Shown here: in pieces, positions 1 to 6,544 of the stretch
Numbering within the stretch: the first letter of the stretch is position 1
Layout: the number at the start of each line of letters is the position of its first letter
NCBI GenBank assembly: GCA_965205425.1
Contig: CBDBGZ010000005.1
Span: 1-64,000, forward strand
DNA from: Nitrosopumilus sp.
GTDB lineage: Archaea > Thermoproteota > Nitrososphaeria > Nitrososphaerales > Nitrosopumilaceae
Direction: 5' to 3'
DNA length: 64,000 bases
Position numbers and translations under genes: made by a program
The notes under the pieces: model-generated
Told to the model about the DNA's origin: nothing
Database searches by the model: none
Seen by the model: only the letters and a program-made list of their open reading frames with translations

Positions 1-28
1 AAATGTTTTTAAAGATTTCACATAGATA
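1..28 (+). mobile_element. Right end of a second IS110 copy (rest upstream of window)
   Basis: 1-28 is the exact reverse complement of 1391-1418, the right end of the IS110 at 1391-2739. Confidence 0.8.
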
Positions 29-1392
29 TGTGTTTAGGTCACGCCTAGATTAAACCGAATAATTTAGATCAGAGAAGAATTTTCAAGAAATAATGGACTC
101 TAAACCGTGCAAAAACTGTGATGATTTGGCAAGAAAAAACATCGAATTGGAAATCAAAATCAAGCAGCTAGAATCAAAATTATCTTACTATGATAACCCA
201 AACTCTCCGCCATCATCTGATTCTCTCCATTGGAGGAAACAAAAGAAGAACAGAAAATCAAACCATCACAACAAACCAGGACAAAAGCCTGGACACAAGG
301 GAACAACTACTAATTTCAAACCAACAGAGACCATTCTTCACAAAACAGACCAATGCTCAAGATGTGGCAGCAAGAAGATAGAACAAACCACACAACAAAC
401 CAGAATCATTGCAGAAATTCCAAAACCGCAACCAGTTATCATAACCAAACACGTAATCCACTCATATTTTTGCAACAACTGCGGCAACACAACCACATCT
501 GATTGTGCAATACCCCAGAAAGGAAATTTGGGATTTAATTTGACAGGGATCATACTATCTCTGTGGTCAGCTAGAATTACACTAAGAAACATTGCAAAGA
601 TGCTTCAATCATTTTATTGTATAAAAATATCTGCAGGTACAATCAACAATTGTCTGTGTAACACTTCTGCAGCACTAGAACCTGTCGTAGAGAAAATCAG
701 AGATGACATCTGTACCTCAAAATCTGCGCATTTTGATGAGACAAAATATTCCATTCATGGAAATACGGGATGGGTATGGACTGGAGTGAATCAGAACTCG
801 TGTTTTATCACAGTTGAGAAAAGTCGAGGCAAAAATGTGTTACAGAAACATTTCCCATCATTTGCAGGAGTTGCAGTCTGTGATGGATGGATGCCATACC
901 ATATGTTTGGTATCAGACAGAGGTGCTGGGCCCACATACTGCGTGAGGCAAGACACACATCAGAAAAACTAGGAACAGACAATTCTACCTCATTGTATCA
1001 ATCTTTGAAAGAATTGTTTGTATACATCACATTATACAAAATAGAGAAACCAAATTATTTTCTGTATAATTATGGTGTAGAGTCATTGGAGCAAATCCTG
1101 TTACAATATACTGATGATGAATCATTACAAAAATTTCTAACCAAGATTAATAACGCAAAGAATAACCTGTTCACATTTTTGCTATATCCAGGAGTGGAAC
1201 CAACAAACAATGCAGCTGAGCGTGCATTACGAGAGTCAGTAATTTGTAGAAAGATTCGTGGATGTGTCAGGAATGAGAAGGGTATGAGAATGTTTGGAAA
1301 TTTAATGAGTTGTATTATGACATGGAAGGTTAGGAATTGCAATATTTTAGATGAAATTGTGAAATATGTGTGAGTCTGGACCTAAACACATA
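27..1392 (+). mobile_element. IS66-family element (single tnpC), both TIRs interrupted by IS110
   Basis: TATGTGTTTAGGTC at 27-40 and its reverse complement at 1379-1392; removing the IS110 restores GTATGTGTTTAGGTC. Confidence 0.85.
93..1373 (+). CDS. tnpC: IS66 family transposase
   Basis: NSPPSSD, KPGHKG, zinc ribbon, HFDET, CDG, QRCWAHILR, PTNNAAERALR motifs. Confidence 0.95.
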   Translation: MDSKPCKNCDDLARKNIELEIKIKQLESKLSYYDNPNSPPSSDSLHWRKQKKNRKSNHHNKPGQKPGHKGTTTNFKPTETILHKTDQCSRCGSKKIEQTTQQTRIIAEIPKPQPVIITKHVIHSYFCNNCGNTTTSDCAIPQKGNLGFNLTGIILSLWSARITLRNIAKMLQSFYCIKISAGTINNCLCNTSAALEPVVEKIRDDICTSKSAHFDETKYSIHGNTGWVWTGVNQNSCFITVEKSRGKNVLQKHFPSFAGVAVCDGWMPYHMFGIRQRCWAHILREARHTSEKLGTDNSTSLYQSLKELFVYITLYKIEKPNYFLYNYGVESLEQILLQYTDDESLQKFLTKINNAKNNLFTFLLYPGVEPTNNAAERALRESVICRKIRGCVRNEKGMRMFGNLMSCIMTWKVRNCNILDEIVKYV

Positions 1393-1414
1393 TCTATGTG
1401 AAATCTTTAAAAAC

Positions 1415-1612
1415 ATTTGCACTCTTTTGCAACACATGAGAATGGCTACCGCTAGAGATGATCCCATTCATTTTCAAAAGATGAAACCGGACACATATCT
1501 ATTCGAGGATCTCCCTCAGTACCATTCTTCATCCATTTATCAGAACCATGCCGCAGTTACAAAACGAGGATCTCCCTCAATGTGTTTAACGAGGATTATA
1601 GTTCTGATCATA
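1415..1612 (-). ncRNA. Putative bridge/seek RNA of the IS110 element (boundaries approximate)
   Basis: Two stem-closed loops, each with the same hairpin CGAGGATCTCCCTCA (1504-1518, 1565-1579) flanked by segments matching target and donor. Confidence 0.75.
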
Positions 1613-1620
1613 ATGTTTCA

Positions 1621-2622
1621 TTATGCATTTTTGATGCACTGGTAAAATGTCATGTTGTTTTTTAACATCCAGTAAATTATTCTCAACAGTTTGGATGCTG
1701 CTGCCACTGCAGCTTTTGATGTCCCCCTCTTTTTTGCAAGACGTTTGTAAAAATTTGTAATGGTGCTGTTTTTTGCATATCTTACATGAGAATGTACTGC
1801 CTCCACCAGAACCCAGCGTAACATGCTACTTCCTCTTCTTGTTATGGACCCATGGCGTATGGTGTCAGCTGAGTTTCTCACCGATGGTACAATTCCTGCA
1901 TATGAACACAGTTTGTGAGAATCTGAAAATCTTTCGATATTGTCAATTTCAGAGGATATGGTTAATGCAGTAAATCTTCCAACACCAGGTATTGATTCTA
2001 AGAGTTGTGCGTTAGAATCATGTTTTAGAGCATCCTTGATTCTCATGTCTGACTCTGCGATTCTATCATTGATTGATATTATCATCTTGAGATATCCATC
2101 TATTCGATAGTCATCTAATCCCAACAGTTTGTGCACATATGAATCAGAAAATGCAGTTCCTGGTATCTTGATTGCATTTTGTAAGGTTATACTGTGAATC
2201 AAATTTTTCATCCTTGTCCTGTTGCGGACTAGTTTGGTTCTATATCTCACCAGTTGTCTTGTTTGCACGGTATCTTTTTCTGGTACATGACAAGATGAGA
2301 TGTATCCTCCTCTTAGCAAATCTGCCAAGATGTGAGCATCAATCTTGTCAGTTTTTTTCTTTGATGCTGCAATTGCTTTTGTGTGATATGGGTTTGATAG
2401 TATTACATCAAATCCTAGTTCGTCTCGCAGAAACCTAAACACGCCATACCAGACAGATGATGATTCCATTACACATTTTGAGTTTTTTGGGATTGCAGAA
2501 AATGCTTTTTTGATATCCCCTCTGGTGTTTGTAATTTTTTCATTGAATAATGTATGTCCTTTATCATCCATTGTTTCGACCTGTAAGAATTCTTTGTGCA
2601 AATCAATTCCGACATAGGTCAT
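1621..2622 (-). CDS. IS110 DEDD recombinase (likely start ATG 2622; ORF open to 2730)
   Basis: YVGIDLHK, MES, KTDKIDA, SIPGVG, YAGIVPSVRNSA motifs. Confidence 0.95.
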   Translation of the reverse strand: MTYVGIDLHKEFLQVETMDDKGHTLFNEKITNTRGDIKKAFSAIPKNSKCVMESSSVWYGVFRFLRDELGFDVILSNPYHTKAIAASKKKTDKIDAHILADLLRGGYISSCHVPEKDTVQTRQLVRYRTKLVRNRTRMKNLIHSITLQNAIKIPGTAFSDSYVHKLLGLDDYRIDGYLKMIISINDRIAESDMRIKDALKHDSNAQLLESIPGVGRFTALTISSEIDNIERFSDSHKLCSYAGIVPSVRNSADTIRHGSITRRGSSMLRWVLVEAVHSHVRYAKNSTITNFYKRLAKKRGTSKAAVAAASKLLRIIYWMLKNNMTFYQCIKNA

Positions 2623-2740
2623 GGGTTTTGTCTTTCTAGTCCTAATGATTTTCTTTGGTTTTTTCTTGGAGGTGTATCTTTTAGAAACTATAGAATCAGC
2701 AGTACCATCTAAATTTCGTTGTTTATTCACATATGGTTAC

Positions 2741-3047
2741 AACTTGCTTTTGCAAGAAACTTTGCAACAGATTTTGTGTCAATAGAACCATCATCGGCAT
2801 AGCATTTGCATTGTATGGCACATAATTTACCATCGTGCTGTTCTGCTACAAGGTCAATTCCGGTGTCTATTCCATCTCTTTTTGGCCACTCATTCCACAT
2901 GTACGCTTTTTTGAATTGTCGGGTATACATGGGATCTATTTTGAAAAAATCCTTTGTTATCTTTTCAAACTTTGTTCCTAGTTCCCTAGTACTTGCAGAT
3001 TCTTTTCTTATTTTTTTGAGAACATCATCAAATGTGGTTTGAATCAT
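2741..3047 (-). pseudogene. N-terminal Mrr-like nuclease domain of a restriction/helicase (type ISP-like) gene, cut by IS66
   Basis: GTKFEK...DTGIDLVA...AIQCKCY motif; reading frame runs into IS sequence at 2740. Confidence 0.8.
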
Positions 3048-3171
3048 TTAGAATACACCTGTGTTATCCATTATTTTATGTTTATTTAACAGTGTGAATA
3101 ATCCTCCGTGCTGTGTTATTTTTGGAAACCTCAGGTACCTGACGAATTATCTTTTTAACATGTCTCCCTAG

Positions 3172-3501
3172 TTAAACACCAATGGACTCATCTTTGCTTA
3201 GTTCTAAAAATACCTTATCTCCAATTGCGATACCCATGTCTTTGTATTCATGCATTTCAAGTTTTAATCGAGTAACACCACTTTGTATTCCCATGCCACC
3301 TCCCATTCCAGACATCATCTTGTTCAAATCTTTCATCATGTCATTCATGTTTGAGAATCCCATGACTTCTGATTTTTCAAAAGGTGATTGCAAGTTTTTA
3401 GAACCGTCTTTAAGATCCCTGAGAGAGGATAGTGAGACTATTACGTATGGTGCCCCATCAGGTGCTGAATCAATGCTTTTTACTACAAATTCTTTCTTCA
3501 T
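3172..3501 (-). CDS. Hypothetical protein
   Basis: Clean 109-aa ORF with ATG start and AT-rich upstream region. Confidence 0.7.
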   Translation of the reverse strand: MKKEFVVKSIDSAPDGAPYVIVSLSSLRDLKDGSKNLQSPFEKSEVMGFSNMNDMMKDLNKMMSGMGGGMGIQSGVTRLKLEMHEYKDMGIAIGDKVFLELSKDESIGV

Positions 3502-3827: not shown

Positions 3828-4715
3828 TTATCGGCCTTGTAGAAACCATAATAAAATAACAAAATCTAATTTTCTAATCCTGTAAGCATTGTATGCAATT
3901 AACCTGTACAACATCTCATTGTCCTGAGTTGTAACATTTCTTGATGTGACATCTCCTGACATTATCTGTTTGATCACAAAAAAGATTGTTTCAGATTTGT
4001 TTCTCTGATGGTACAATTGTACAGGAAAGTTCCTCTTCATCTCCTTTCTGTGAATTCCACTGGTTCTGTAAATTGGAACTGTTCTATATCGAGTTGGAAT
4101 CATTGCAGCTGTGTTGATCTGTTCTGCACCAACATGGTTATTCTCATCATCAAAACCCATGTCACCTAACACAATATCAACTGGAACAATATTGTTGGTT
4201 TTGTACAACAATGGCAGAAAATCAGGATTATCATGTTGCATGTTGTGGTGTGTCATGACACAGCAAACAAGCTGTGTATTCATGTCAGCACAAACAACAA
4301 CTTTTAGGAAATTCCTGCGTAACTGTACTCTTTTTGTATAATAGTATGATGCTGTACTGTAACTGAATCCGCTACCATCAATTCCAGCTAGAACCAGTCT
4401 GACTTTTTTGTACAAAATGAATTCCTGCAACATTTTATGTAACAGATTTCCTTCCAGTCTTGCAGCTGCCTTTTGTAGTGTGGTGTAATGTGGAATGGTA
4501 GACAAACCAAGATATTCCTGAATTCCTACACATTCTTCTAAAAATTCTGTAAATCTTCTATAACTCTTTGATTCGTACTGTCGTATTGCCAAGAGTATGA
4601 GATGTGTCCAAACAGAATAGATATGATTTGATTTTGGATGTAAGAACCTGGGAATTCTGCATCTGGTGATTATATTGAGTAGTGTTTTGCACATTTTGAC
4701 GTATGATGAGACCAT
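3828..4715 (-). CDS. IS5-family DDE transposase
   Basis: IPHYTTL, IDGSGF, GDMGFD, YHQRNKSETIF. Confidence 0.9.
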   Translation of the reverse strand: MVSSYVKMCKTLLNIITRCRIPRFLHPKSNHIYSVWTHLILLAIRQYESKSYRRFTEFLEECVGIQEYLGLSTIPHYTTLQKAAARLEGNLLHKMLQEFILYKKVRLVLAGIDGSGFSYSTASYYYTKRVQLRRNFLKVVVCADMNTQLVCCVMTHHNMQHDNPDFLPLLYKTNNIVPVDIVLGDMGFDDENNHVGAEQINTAAMIPTRYRTVPIYRTSGIHRKEMKRNFPVQLYHQRNKSETIFFVIKQIMSGDVTSRNVTTQDNEMLYRLIAYNAYRIRKLDFVILLWFLQGR

Positions 4716-5461: not shown

Positions 5462-6544
5462 TAGCGAAAAGATAAAGTTCGTGAACTAAATAATTCCAAA
5501 ACAAAAAACTTTTTGATCACTATGTATGGTAAAATTTGATGAACAAGTTAGAATCACTTGAAAGCAGCATACAAAAAAGAAAACTCCAAGGTTGCAGTAA
5601 GGATGCTTGCAGTGTTGATGATTCTAAAGGATGGAAAGGACATACAGTGCACTGCAAAGACATTACACCACTGCACAAGCTGGGTGAGAAAATGGACGAG
5701 TCGTTTTGAGATAGATGGCCTCTACGACCACCCAAGAAGTGGCAGGCCAAGAACAATCTCCCAGACTCGAATGGATGCTATCATGTCAAAAGCAATGCTA
5801 ACTTTGTTTACCCCCATAATGTTGCAACAAAGTATCTTTTATTCCACTGGAGTAAAATTTCACATAACCCACATCAGAAAGATAATGCACCAATACGGCA
5901 TGTCTGCAAAAACTGCACAAAAATATCACATCAACCATGCAAGTATATCTGCTGTGAGAAGCTGGCAGCAACGCACCAAAAAGAGAATTTCACGCCTAAA
6001 AAAGAAAGGATTTGTAATTGCAATGGCTGATGAAGCATTCTTTGTAAGGGATACAAAAACAGGAAAAAAGTACTGGTCACCAGTTGCCAAGAGAATATTT
6101 CTTCCATATACAGGACGACATGAGAGTCTGGCAGTGTATGGTACAATTACAGAAAATGGCAATCAACTATTCAGAGTTTATGACAAATTCAATGCTGTAA
6201 CATTTGTAGAGTACCTAAAGGAATTGCATCAGAAATATGGCAAAATTGCAATCATTTTAGATAGAGCATCAGTTCACAAATCAAAGAAGGTAAAGGAATA
6301 CCTTGCAAACAATAGAGATGTCAAACTAATCTGGTTGCCAAAGGGATCACCATACTTGAACATGATAGAGCAGTGCTGGAAGATAAGCAAATATGCGTTG
6401 TTGGTTTCAGAGTATTATGCAATGTTTACAATAATGAACAAGGCAGTGTCAAAATATTTCAGAGTGACAAAATTCAAGCTTGATGTTGCAAATTATATCT
6501 TTAGAAATCCTGCAAAGATGTTTGCGAACTTTTGATCGTCGCTA
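5462..6544 (+). mobile_element. IS630-family element type A
   Basis: Imperfect TIRs TAGCGAAAAGATAAAGTTCG / CGAACTTTTGATCGTCGCTA; TA on both sides. Confidence 0.9.
5558..6535 (+). CDS. IS630 transposase; possibly frameshifted at the N-terminus
   Basis: RSGRP, ADEA, LDRASVH, LPKGSPYLNMIE; one extra A relative to the 15.2 kb copy puts ATG 5539 out of frame. Confidence 0.85.
   Translation: MKAAYKKENSKVAVRMLAVLMILKDGKDIQCTAKTLHHCTSWVRKWTSRFEIDGLYDHPRSGRPRTISQTRMDAIMSKAMLTLFTPIMLQQSIFYSTGVKFHITHIRKIMHQYGMSAKTAQKYHINHASISAVRSWQQRTKKRISRLKKKGFVIAMADEAFFVRDTKTGKKYWSPVAKRIFLPYTGRHESLAVYGTITENGNQLFRVYDKFNAVTFVEYLKELHQKYGKIAIILDRASVHKSKKVKEYLANNRDVKLIWLPKGSPYLNMIEQCWKISKYALLVSEYYAMFTIMNKAVSKYFRVTKFKLDVANYIFRNPAKMFANF

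Follow-up and report, generated by a model that had tools for sequence, protein, structure and literature searches.

Insertion sequences (ISs) of the IS110 family use an RNA-guided mechanism that became known from bacteria in 2024. In IS1111-type elements, the long noncoding region downstream from the transposase gene yields a seekRNA, in which the match to the top strand of the target lies 5' of the match to the bottom strand (Siddiquee 2024, PMC11187229). For 93% of IS1111 entries, a bridge RNA has been predicted that lies in the right end, and the subterminal inverted repeats of the group span 7 to 17 bp (Durrant 2024, PMC11208160); two loops, a 2-nucleotide (nt) core, and "handshake" bases have been described for IS621 (Hiraizumi 2024, PMC11208158). 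Archaea also carry such elements: 662 archaeal homologues of the recombinase have been catalogued (10.1101/2024.06.21.599552), ISfinder holds archaeal entries such as ISHvo10 (PMC11187229), and in a 2026 survey, the genome richest in ISs within its phylum is reported to be that of a Nitrosopumilus. Our literature search found no paper on IS110 guide RNAs in Nitrosopumilus or other ammonia-oxidizing archaea.

The DNA analyzed here is the first 64,000 nt of contig C5 (CBDBGZ010000005.1) of a Nitrosopumilus genome, and this whole stretch is called the window. Positions 1393 to 2737 very probably hold an intact IS1111-type member of the IS110 family, with a guide RNA directed at the tip of the inverted repeat of an IS66-family element. 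What can be read in the DNA itself comprises the ends of the element, the TA dinucleotide at either junction, the complementarities and the way in which they co-vary with flanks and ends in relatives, a conserved fold, and empty IS66 targets. As the mechanism is already known, the element is a clear new example and not a new principle; what is particular to it is the tip of an IS66 inverted repeat as the target and an unusually clear natural co-variation among sister families.

Like ISEc11, ISPa11, ISKpn4, and ISPst6, the element combines a downstream noncoding region, subterminal repeats, and matches to both target strands in the same order, and its transposase of 333 amino acids (aa) compares with 330 to 350 aa for the IS1111 group (PMC11187229). 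It differs from that seekRNA set in its archaeal host (Nitrosopumilus), its TA core, and its IS66-end target. With IS621 and ISCro4 it shares a two-loop RNA made of a target loop and a donor loop, with both strands read around a 2-nt core (PMC11208160, PMC11208158), as well as a recombinase that can be aligned from end to end, catalytic residues included, at low identity (E about 1e-12). Unlike in IS621 and ISCro4, the RNA lies in the right rather than the left end and has its arms in reverse order, and the core is TA rather than CT.

Extent of the element and its recombinase

Comparison of the genome copies placed the element at 1393-2737 on the minus strand, with TA at both junctions, because the similarity among the copies ends at these borders on both sides. 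On the 5' side of the gene, likeness is lost past ...CATATGGT-TA-C (positions 2737-2740), and on the 3' side, past TA-TCTATGTG... (1391-1393); the exact stretch common to the copies runs from TA|TCTATGTG through GGT|TA. The start at 1415 given in a first-pass annotation of this DNA must be corrected, being 22 nt short of the true right end at 1393 (TA at 1391-1392); the reconstructed target in the same annotation was already based on the latter junction. The 2.2-Mb genome contains three full copies (99.8 to 100% identity), two that are truncated where a contig ends, and fragments, and the copies carry intact 333-aa frames and differing flanks. The family of the window element is referred to as A and its sibling families as B, C, and D. 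The element and its junctions are made up as follows.

1391-1392, no strand: core TA of the right-end junction, also bases 2 and 3 of the IS66 inverted repeat
1393-1473, minus strand: right-end tail, with a subterminal repeat at 1395-1402 and a TATA-like run at 1406-1413; common to all A and B copies
1474-1617, minus strand: predicted two-loop bridge/seek RNA, matched by covariance model R1 with 131.7 bits (E = 3e-26)
1480-1533, minus strand: donor-binding loop, with the 3' arm AAUAGAUAUGUGU at 1491-1503, hairpin at 1504-1518, and 5' arm AAUGGUAC at 1519-1526
1539-1608, minus strand: target-binding loop, with the 3' arm UUUUGUA at 1558-1564, hairpin at 1565-1579, and 5' arm UUAAACACAU at 1580-1589
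1621-2622, minus strand: DEDD transposase/recombinase of 333 aa, starting MTYVGIDLHK, identified from the open reading frame (ORF), Pfam, NCBIfam, and structure alignment
2623-2737, minus strand: left end, with the tip ACCAT and a subterminal repeat at 2726-2733
2738-2740, no strand: left-end core TA (2738-2739) followed by the displaced IS66 terminal base, C on the plus strand and G in the element sense

The assignment of the protein to the IS110/IS1111 recombinases, made in the first-pass annotation, is borne out by Pfam (PF01548, 97 bits, and PF02371, 83 bits, for the N-terminal DEDD RuvC-like and the C-terminal Transposase_20 domains), by NCBIfam (NF033542, "IS110 family RNA-guided transposase," 250 bits against a cutoff of 140), and by alignment with the IS621 and ISCro4 recombinases over residues 2 to 326, that is, over the full length (E about 3e-12). 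The GID motif, the glutamate of ESS, KTDKID, and the serine of G--P----S, here GIVPSVRNS, all align with IS621 (8wt6). The residue that follows the motif serine is alanine and not glycine; the resulting SA compares with SG or TG, and occasionally TA, in the IS1111 group (PMC11187229).

The layout is likewise of the IS1111 type, as first annotated: the noncoding DNA downstream from the gene is 228 nt long (1393-1620) versus 115 nt upstream (2623-2737), the top-strand match lies 5' of the bottom-strand match, and an 8-bp subterminal inverted repeat is present (TATGTGAA at 1395-1402 and TTCACATA at 2726-2733, located 2 nt and 4 nt inside the ends). This repeat was not among the 25 longest repeat pairs listed by a repeat search. 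The host is an ammonia-oxidizing archaeon, as had also been proposed: amoA is present in the genome, and the closest public relatives of the element are found in Nitrosopumilus, Cenarchaeum, and other Nitrosopumilaceae genomes.

The probable target: the tip of an IS66 inverted repeat

The element abuts an IS66-family element, identified by Pfam (DDE_Tnp_IS66) and NCBIfam (transpos_IS66), and the beginning of the window reads as follows.

1-26, plus strand: right-end tip (last 26 nt) of a second IS110 copy, of A or B type; reverse complement of 1393-1418, facing the left end of IS66
27-1392, plus strand: IS66-family element, the target, with a transposase ORF at 93-1373 and both terminal bases displaced by IS110 insertions

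The contig thus begins inside the right end of the second IS110 copy; since positions 1 to 26 are the same right-end tip in the opposite orientation, this copy adjoins the other end of IS66. The junction at the window start, TTCACATAGA-TA-TGTGTTTAGG, is identical at 1392 and at C2:54606. The true ends of IS66 read G-TA-TGTGTTTAGG...CCTAAACACG-TA-C in six of six full copies on contig C4, all of which are flanked by 8-bp target duplications at unrelated sites. The bases matched by the guide therefore belong to IS66, as six uninterrupted copies carry them as their own end.

Read as RNA, from the minus strand, loop 1 is UUAAACACAU-hairpin-UUUUGUA. The 5' arm complements A-TGTGTTTA (the core A plus TGTGTTTA) at the right-end junction, and the reverse complement of this arm, ATGTGTTTAA, is matched over 9 consecutive nt both in the window and on contig C2. 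From the base composition, we calculate a probability of about 1e-5 that 9 nt (ATGTGTTTA) would match by chance at one given position. The sequence TATGTGTTTA occurs 16 times in the genome; nine of these occurrences are IS66 ends, and three of the nine hold the right end of this IS110 element (at C5:27, at C5:1392, and, on a truncated IS66 fragment, at C2:54606). IS66 ends that read TACGTGTTTAGG, with a single mismatch beside the core, are not occupied by IS110 in any of seven cases. Three genome junctions and six empty IS66 copies thus support the target named in the first-pass annotation, the IS66 inverted-repeat tip.

The 3' arm, UUUUGUA, corresponds in the window copy to TTG-TA at the left junction, with 3 of 5 bases matched to the left of TA. 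The proposal that loop 1 matches both strands of the target hence stands for the right arm, with its 9 nt, and is weaker than had been implied for the left. G-TA precedes all six left ends in this genome, and the same G is present at all three left ends in a sister genome; this constant G beside the left-end TA is the displaced terminal base of IS66. TA, the core originally proposed, is found at both junctions, and the 3' target arm ends in TA in every relative. TG was considered as the core, as it would equalize the arm registers between families, and was rejected: the left junction reads G-TA-ACC in all copies, and the IS66 ends read GTA. A 40-bp IS66 inverted repeat (1-40/1379-1418) was also discarded, given that the IS66 copies on C4 stop at 27 and 1392 and that the outer 26 nt recur at IS110 ends without IS66 nearby.

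At position 1390, the occupied right end of IS66 has an A (T in the element sense, matching the guide), and the equivalent base is G (C in the element sense) in the seven right ends of this IS66 family that are unoccupied. The guide-matching base may be a preexisting variant or may be a change made at insertion.

Another IS1111-type element reportedly has its chosen site within the terminal inverted repeat of a different transposon. In the present case, the invaded element is an IS66-family member in an archaeon, and the insertion lies 3 nt from its tip.

A predicted two-loop RNA downstream from the gene

The stems, the twice-used hairpin, and the loop sequences all lie where they were first annotated. 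The outer stem of loop 1 is formed by ATCAGAAC (1539-1546) and GTTCTGAT (1601-1608), the 15-nt hairpin CGAGGATCTCCCTCA occurs at 1504-1518 and again at 1565-1579, and the strands given for the stem of loop 2 are GATGAA (1480-1485) and TTCATC (1528-1533). For loop 2, the letters of the closing stem are present, and the choice of stem is ambiguous: single-sequence folds of this family pair GGAUGAAG with UUUCAUC at the base, the alignment fold pairs GGAUG with UGUCC, and neither candidate shows compensatory changes.

Folding energy alone gives a modest signal, with z = -2.5 for the 233-nt tail relative to shuffles and 3 of 200 shuffles being equally good. The alignment fold, obtained from 37 distinct sequences, has loop 1 as an outer stem, an inner stem, and the hairpin, and loop 2 as a base stem and the hairpin; 98.9% of the cells are paired when this structure is laid over the 37 relatives. 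Compensatory changes occur in 9 of the 25 pairs, compared with 0 to 3 in slid-partner controls, and none of 500 shuffles equaled the observed value. Folding and covariation among homologues, suggested in the first-pass annotation as a check, thus supports the two-loop structure. An Rfam scan of window positions 1 to 3200 returned a chance match to DGCR5 (E = 2.4) as its sole match, and no family fits. Covariance model R1, built from the 37-sequence alignment, has 17 matches in this genome; of 151 genomes sampled from the class, 21 gave a match, spread over 14 of 48 genera.

Loop 2 reads AAUGGUAC-hairpin-AAUAGAUAUGUGU in the RNA sense and fits the joined ends of the element itself, as had been predicted, with both arms matching and co-varying across families. 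The 3' arm starts with AAUAGAUA, equal to the right end ATAGA plus TA, and the 5' arm contains AUGGU, complementary to the left-end tip ACCAT. Among the families, AUGG goes with the left end ACCAT and AUAG with ACTAT, and an A or G in the 3' arm accompanies a right end of ATAGA or ATGGA, with L027, L064, and L051 as exceptions.

In the donor 3' arm, the dinucleotide that follows the core (UG, 1494-1495) equals the first two bases of the right side of the target in 13 of 28 distinct combinations, against 138 of 756 in an all-against-all control. This agreement recalls the handshake bases of IS621 but involves the other arm (PMC11208158).

Guide arms co-vary with landing sites

A profile search found the same 3' region at 56 places within 65 related loci, and the set of relatives, taken from this genome and these loci, comprises 70 RNA instances with 22 distinct 5' arms. 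Among distinct cognate pairs, 34 of 49 showed a right-arm match of at least 7 consecutive nt at the element's own right-end junction; among noncognate pairs, 23 of 1,029 did. For the left arm, at least 4 of the 5 bases to the left of TA were matched in 18 of 36 cognate and 13 of 468 noncognate pairs; this count is not wholly independent, as the donor loop enters into the rule by which left ends were positioned. The counts leave aside rows without a recognizable end motif: a right-end junction is missing in D_C5b and L053, and roughly half of the rows lack a left end within the locus. The covariance model found 10 loci in more distant genomes, 2 of which repeat families already counted; a run of at least 7 nt directly follows the predicted end in five of the eight new ones (L093, 8; L098, 8; L099, 7; L100, 10; L102, 10), two of which match 10 of 10, and L094, L097, and L101 are weak.

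Several observations weigh against the reading that the RNA selects the IS66 tip. Six of the nine perfectly matching IS66 ends are empty. The left arm is matched at 3, 1, and 3 of 5 bases in this genome and at 1, 3, and 1 of 5 in the sister genome, compared with a noncognate mean of 1.46, and only the TA-adjacent G is constant in this family. The 5' arm shifts in register relative to the hairpin by 1 to 2 nt between families. The flanks of some siblings fit the guide of another copy (D_C9b, D_C9c, and D_C5a): the flank of D_C9c fits the guide of D_C9b, and D_C9b shares its locus with L064 of another genome, whose guide fits there; we read these misfits as guide exchange between nearly identical copies, and also as noise in the test. 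Because the copies and families are related, the cognate counts overstate independence. Joined ends, as expected at a circle junction, had no match in the assembly. Finally, one full copy (C9:239003-240356) lies at ATTGTTGTAG, a non-IS66 site at which the longest run is 4 nt.

A paralogue on C4, 99% identical to the flank of the C9 copy, reads ...CAAT-TA-C and diverges right after the junction; the C9 site may stem from an off-target insertion or from a later rearrangement. A search of 20 relatives for an empty counterpart of this site gave nothing informative, the same-genome paralogue being the only find. Mapping of copies and flanks, as proposed at the outset, placed the IS66 tip at the window and C2 sites and one of three full copies at a poorly matched, non-IS66 site. 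No IS66 ORF was found downstream from the right ends of the sister-genome copies L023 to L026.

Proposed mechanism and alternative explanations

The element encodes a DEDD/serine recombinase, and the predicted RNA, which spans about 145 nt and contains two internal loops, lies downstream from that gene. The arms of the donor loop would together hold the circle junction ATAGA-TA-ACCAT; the target loop would engage both strands, with its 5' arm paired to the top strand on the right side of the crossover (A-TGTGTTTA) and its 3' arm paired to the bottom strand on the left side (..TTG-TA). Recombination at the common TA would then split the IS66 terminal inverted repeat between its third and fourth bases, where the element is inserted, and so sever the tip of the repeat. 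In this scheme, we infer from the bacterial systems the production of the RNA, its binding by the recombinase, the circular intermediate, and the order of strand exchange.

A TATA-box-like A/T run, TTTTTAAA, lies on the minus strand at 1406-1413, about 15 nt from the right end, points outward, and is preceded by RAAATG. A/T runs of at least 7 nt occur in 26 of 29 distinct right-end tails, a count that by itself is not significant at 67% A+T; it is the fixed position of the run in the right ends, rather than the count, that is suggestive. After circle formation, the outward box might drive the transposase gene and the RNA as one transcript, which is our own suggestion; the box lies within the right end, and IS621, by comparison, has a sigma-70 promoter that is rebuilt at the junction. 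In the integrated state, the box would read antisense into IS66.

The matches could also be a by-product of target choice by the protein, which would recognize TATGTG-like DNA, with the tail being a structured 3' untranslated region or terminator. In line with this, the IS66 target TA-TGTGTTTA and the target in sibling left ends, TA-TGTGAATAA, both start with TATGTG, as does the subterminal repeat TATGTGAA, and the left arm of the window family is barely matched. However, other families with the same scaffold land at unrelated, arm-matched sites (ATTACAA, CAATCATAA, GATTCATA, GCATAAA, TACTGCG, TCCCAAAAT, and TTCCCAAAT), noncognate pairs seldom match (the 23 of 1,029 given above), and relatives of the protein are RNA guided by experiment (PMC11187229, PMC11208160, PMC11208158); we consider protein-only choice very unlikely. 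The adjacency could conversely have arisen from the other side, with IS66 having jumped beside IS110 ends or a rearrangement between IS copies having joined them. The window IS66 has no target duplication, since it adjoins IS110 ends on both sides; none of the other IS110 left ends in the genome is flanked by the duplicate expected of AACTTGCT, and IS-mediated rearrangements are present here. Against such an origin, three separate junctions break IS66 at the identical base after G-TA (C5:27, C5:1392, and C2:54606), the displaced G/C of IS66 is found at the far side of IS110, IS66 elsewhere makes 8-bp duplications at unrelated sites, and the loop predicts the junction to 9 nt, so that we hold this explanation to be highly improbable.

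A third alternative accepts an RNA-guided origin and takes the element to be a frozen relic, the copies of which were spread by duplication of larger segments rather than by recent transposition. The empty state of six of nine perfect targets would fit a relic, as would the contigs of four runs, in which joints across the element, a circle junction, and empty/occupied polymorphism were all absent, although contig sets cannot reveal rare forms. The copies, at 99.8 to 100% identity with intact 333-aa frames and different flanks, speak for recent movement instead, and we regard the relic explanation as unlikely, if the most credible of the three. An intact RNA-guided element that targets the IS66 tip remains our preferred explanation.

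Sibling families and surrounding locus

Family B carries the 5' arm UUUUCACAU and the 3' arm AAACUAUA, and its right-end junctions all lie inside the left end of another IS110 element, TAAC(C/T)A-TA-TGTGAATAA. All three copies in this genome are nested in this way (C8:46965-48200, C9:246100-247335, and C9:262439-263674), as are 12 of the 12 listed rows from related chromosomes. The family B loci are L052, L054, L055, L058, L063, L065, L066, L068, L080, L082, and L060; the flank continues as the left-end sequence of family B itself in L065 and as an A-like variant in L060. The same nesting is seen at window position 2734 in contigs of two runs (X1 and X4). Compared with the window family, the donor loop and right end of B differ at 1 of 144 positions, and the target loops are identical at 41 of 86.

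Family D (C9:39595, 86813, 483850, and 1144998; C5:207470 and 228288) retains at its left end a 6-nt remnant of an invaded element, TAACTA-TA-ACCATATG. Over the 5' two-thirds, it shares 94 to 99% identity with B, and over the 3' third and the RNA, about 90% with C; judging from these sequences, family D looks like a chimera produced by recombination in an IS110-in-IS110 tandem. A further family, with the 5' arm UUAUGAAUCA (L033 to L043, L075, and L053, in another Nitrosopumilus chromosome), resides in the inverted repeat of a different IS66-family element, 9 to 11 nt from the IS66-type tip, and its right-end junctions show TT or T in place of the expected TA. In L053, that site is apparently present in empty form, as CTTTGC-TT-GATTCAT. 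In metagenome run X3, a contig with a depth of 194, above that of the rest of the element, joins position 2667 to 1555 with 29 other letters in between, a joint that would place the target loop directly upstream from the transposase gene.

On its other side, the window element adjoins a truncated host gene, and the start of the contig is an IS cluster.

2741-3047, minus strand: N-terminal part of a truncated host gene, Mrr_cat_2 restriction-endonuclease-like, covering only positions 1 to 71 of the 127-position profile PF13156

The N-terminal portion of this Mrr_cat_2-like protein, about 100 residues, has been cut off by the insertions, and the remainder is absent from this contig. Further transposase-like ORFs lie nearby at 3828-4715 (minus strand, with a DDE_Tnp_1 domain) and at 5558-6535 (plus strand).

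Implications

The window family sits in an IS66 repeat 3 nt from its tip, a second lineage, from another genome, sits in the repeat of a different IS66-family element and at another register, and a third sits only in the left ends of sibling IS110 elements. Taken together, these cases suggest, tentatively and as a possibility we would not yet favor, that the IS1111-type elements of the Nitrosopumilaceae form a guild whose guides are mainly aimed at the ends of other mobile elements, with target and donor modules being swapped between copies by recombination. If this were true, the outward TATA-like promoter would read antisense into the invaded transposon, and other transposons would serve as safe harbors and might in addition be disabled or silenced.

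The element extends RNA-guided recombination of the IS110/IS1111 type, shown so far in bacteria, to ammonia-oxidizing archaea. About twenty sister families, with one scaffold and guide arms that vary with the landing sites, amount to a natural experiment, and the set helps to define design rules for a TA-core system in AT-rich DNA. A transposon that is aimed at the end of another also bears on how IS-rich symbiont genomes are shaped.

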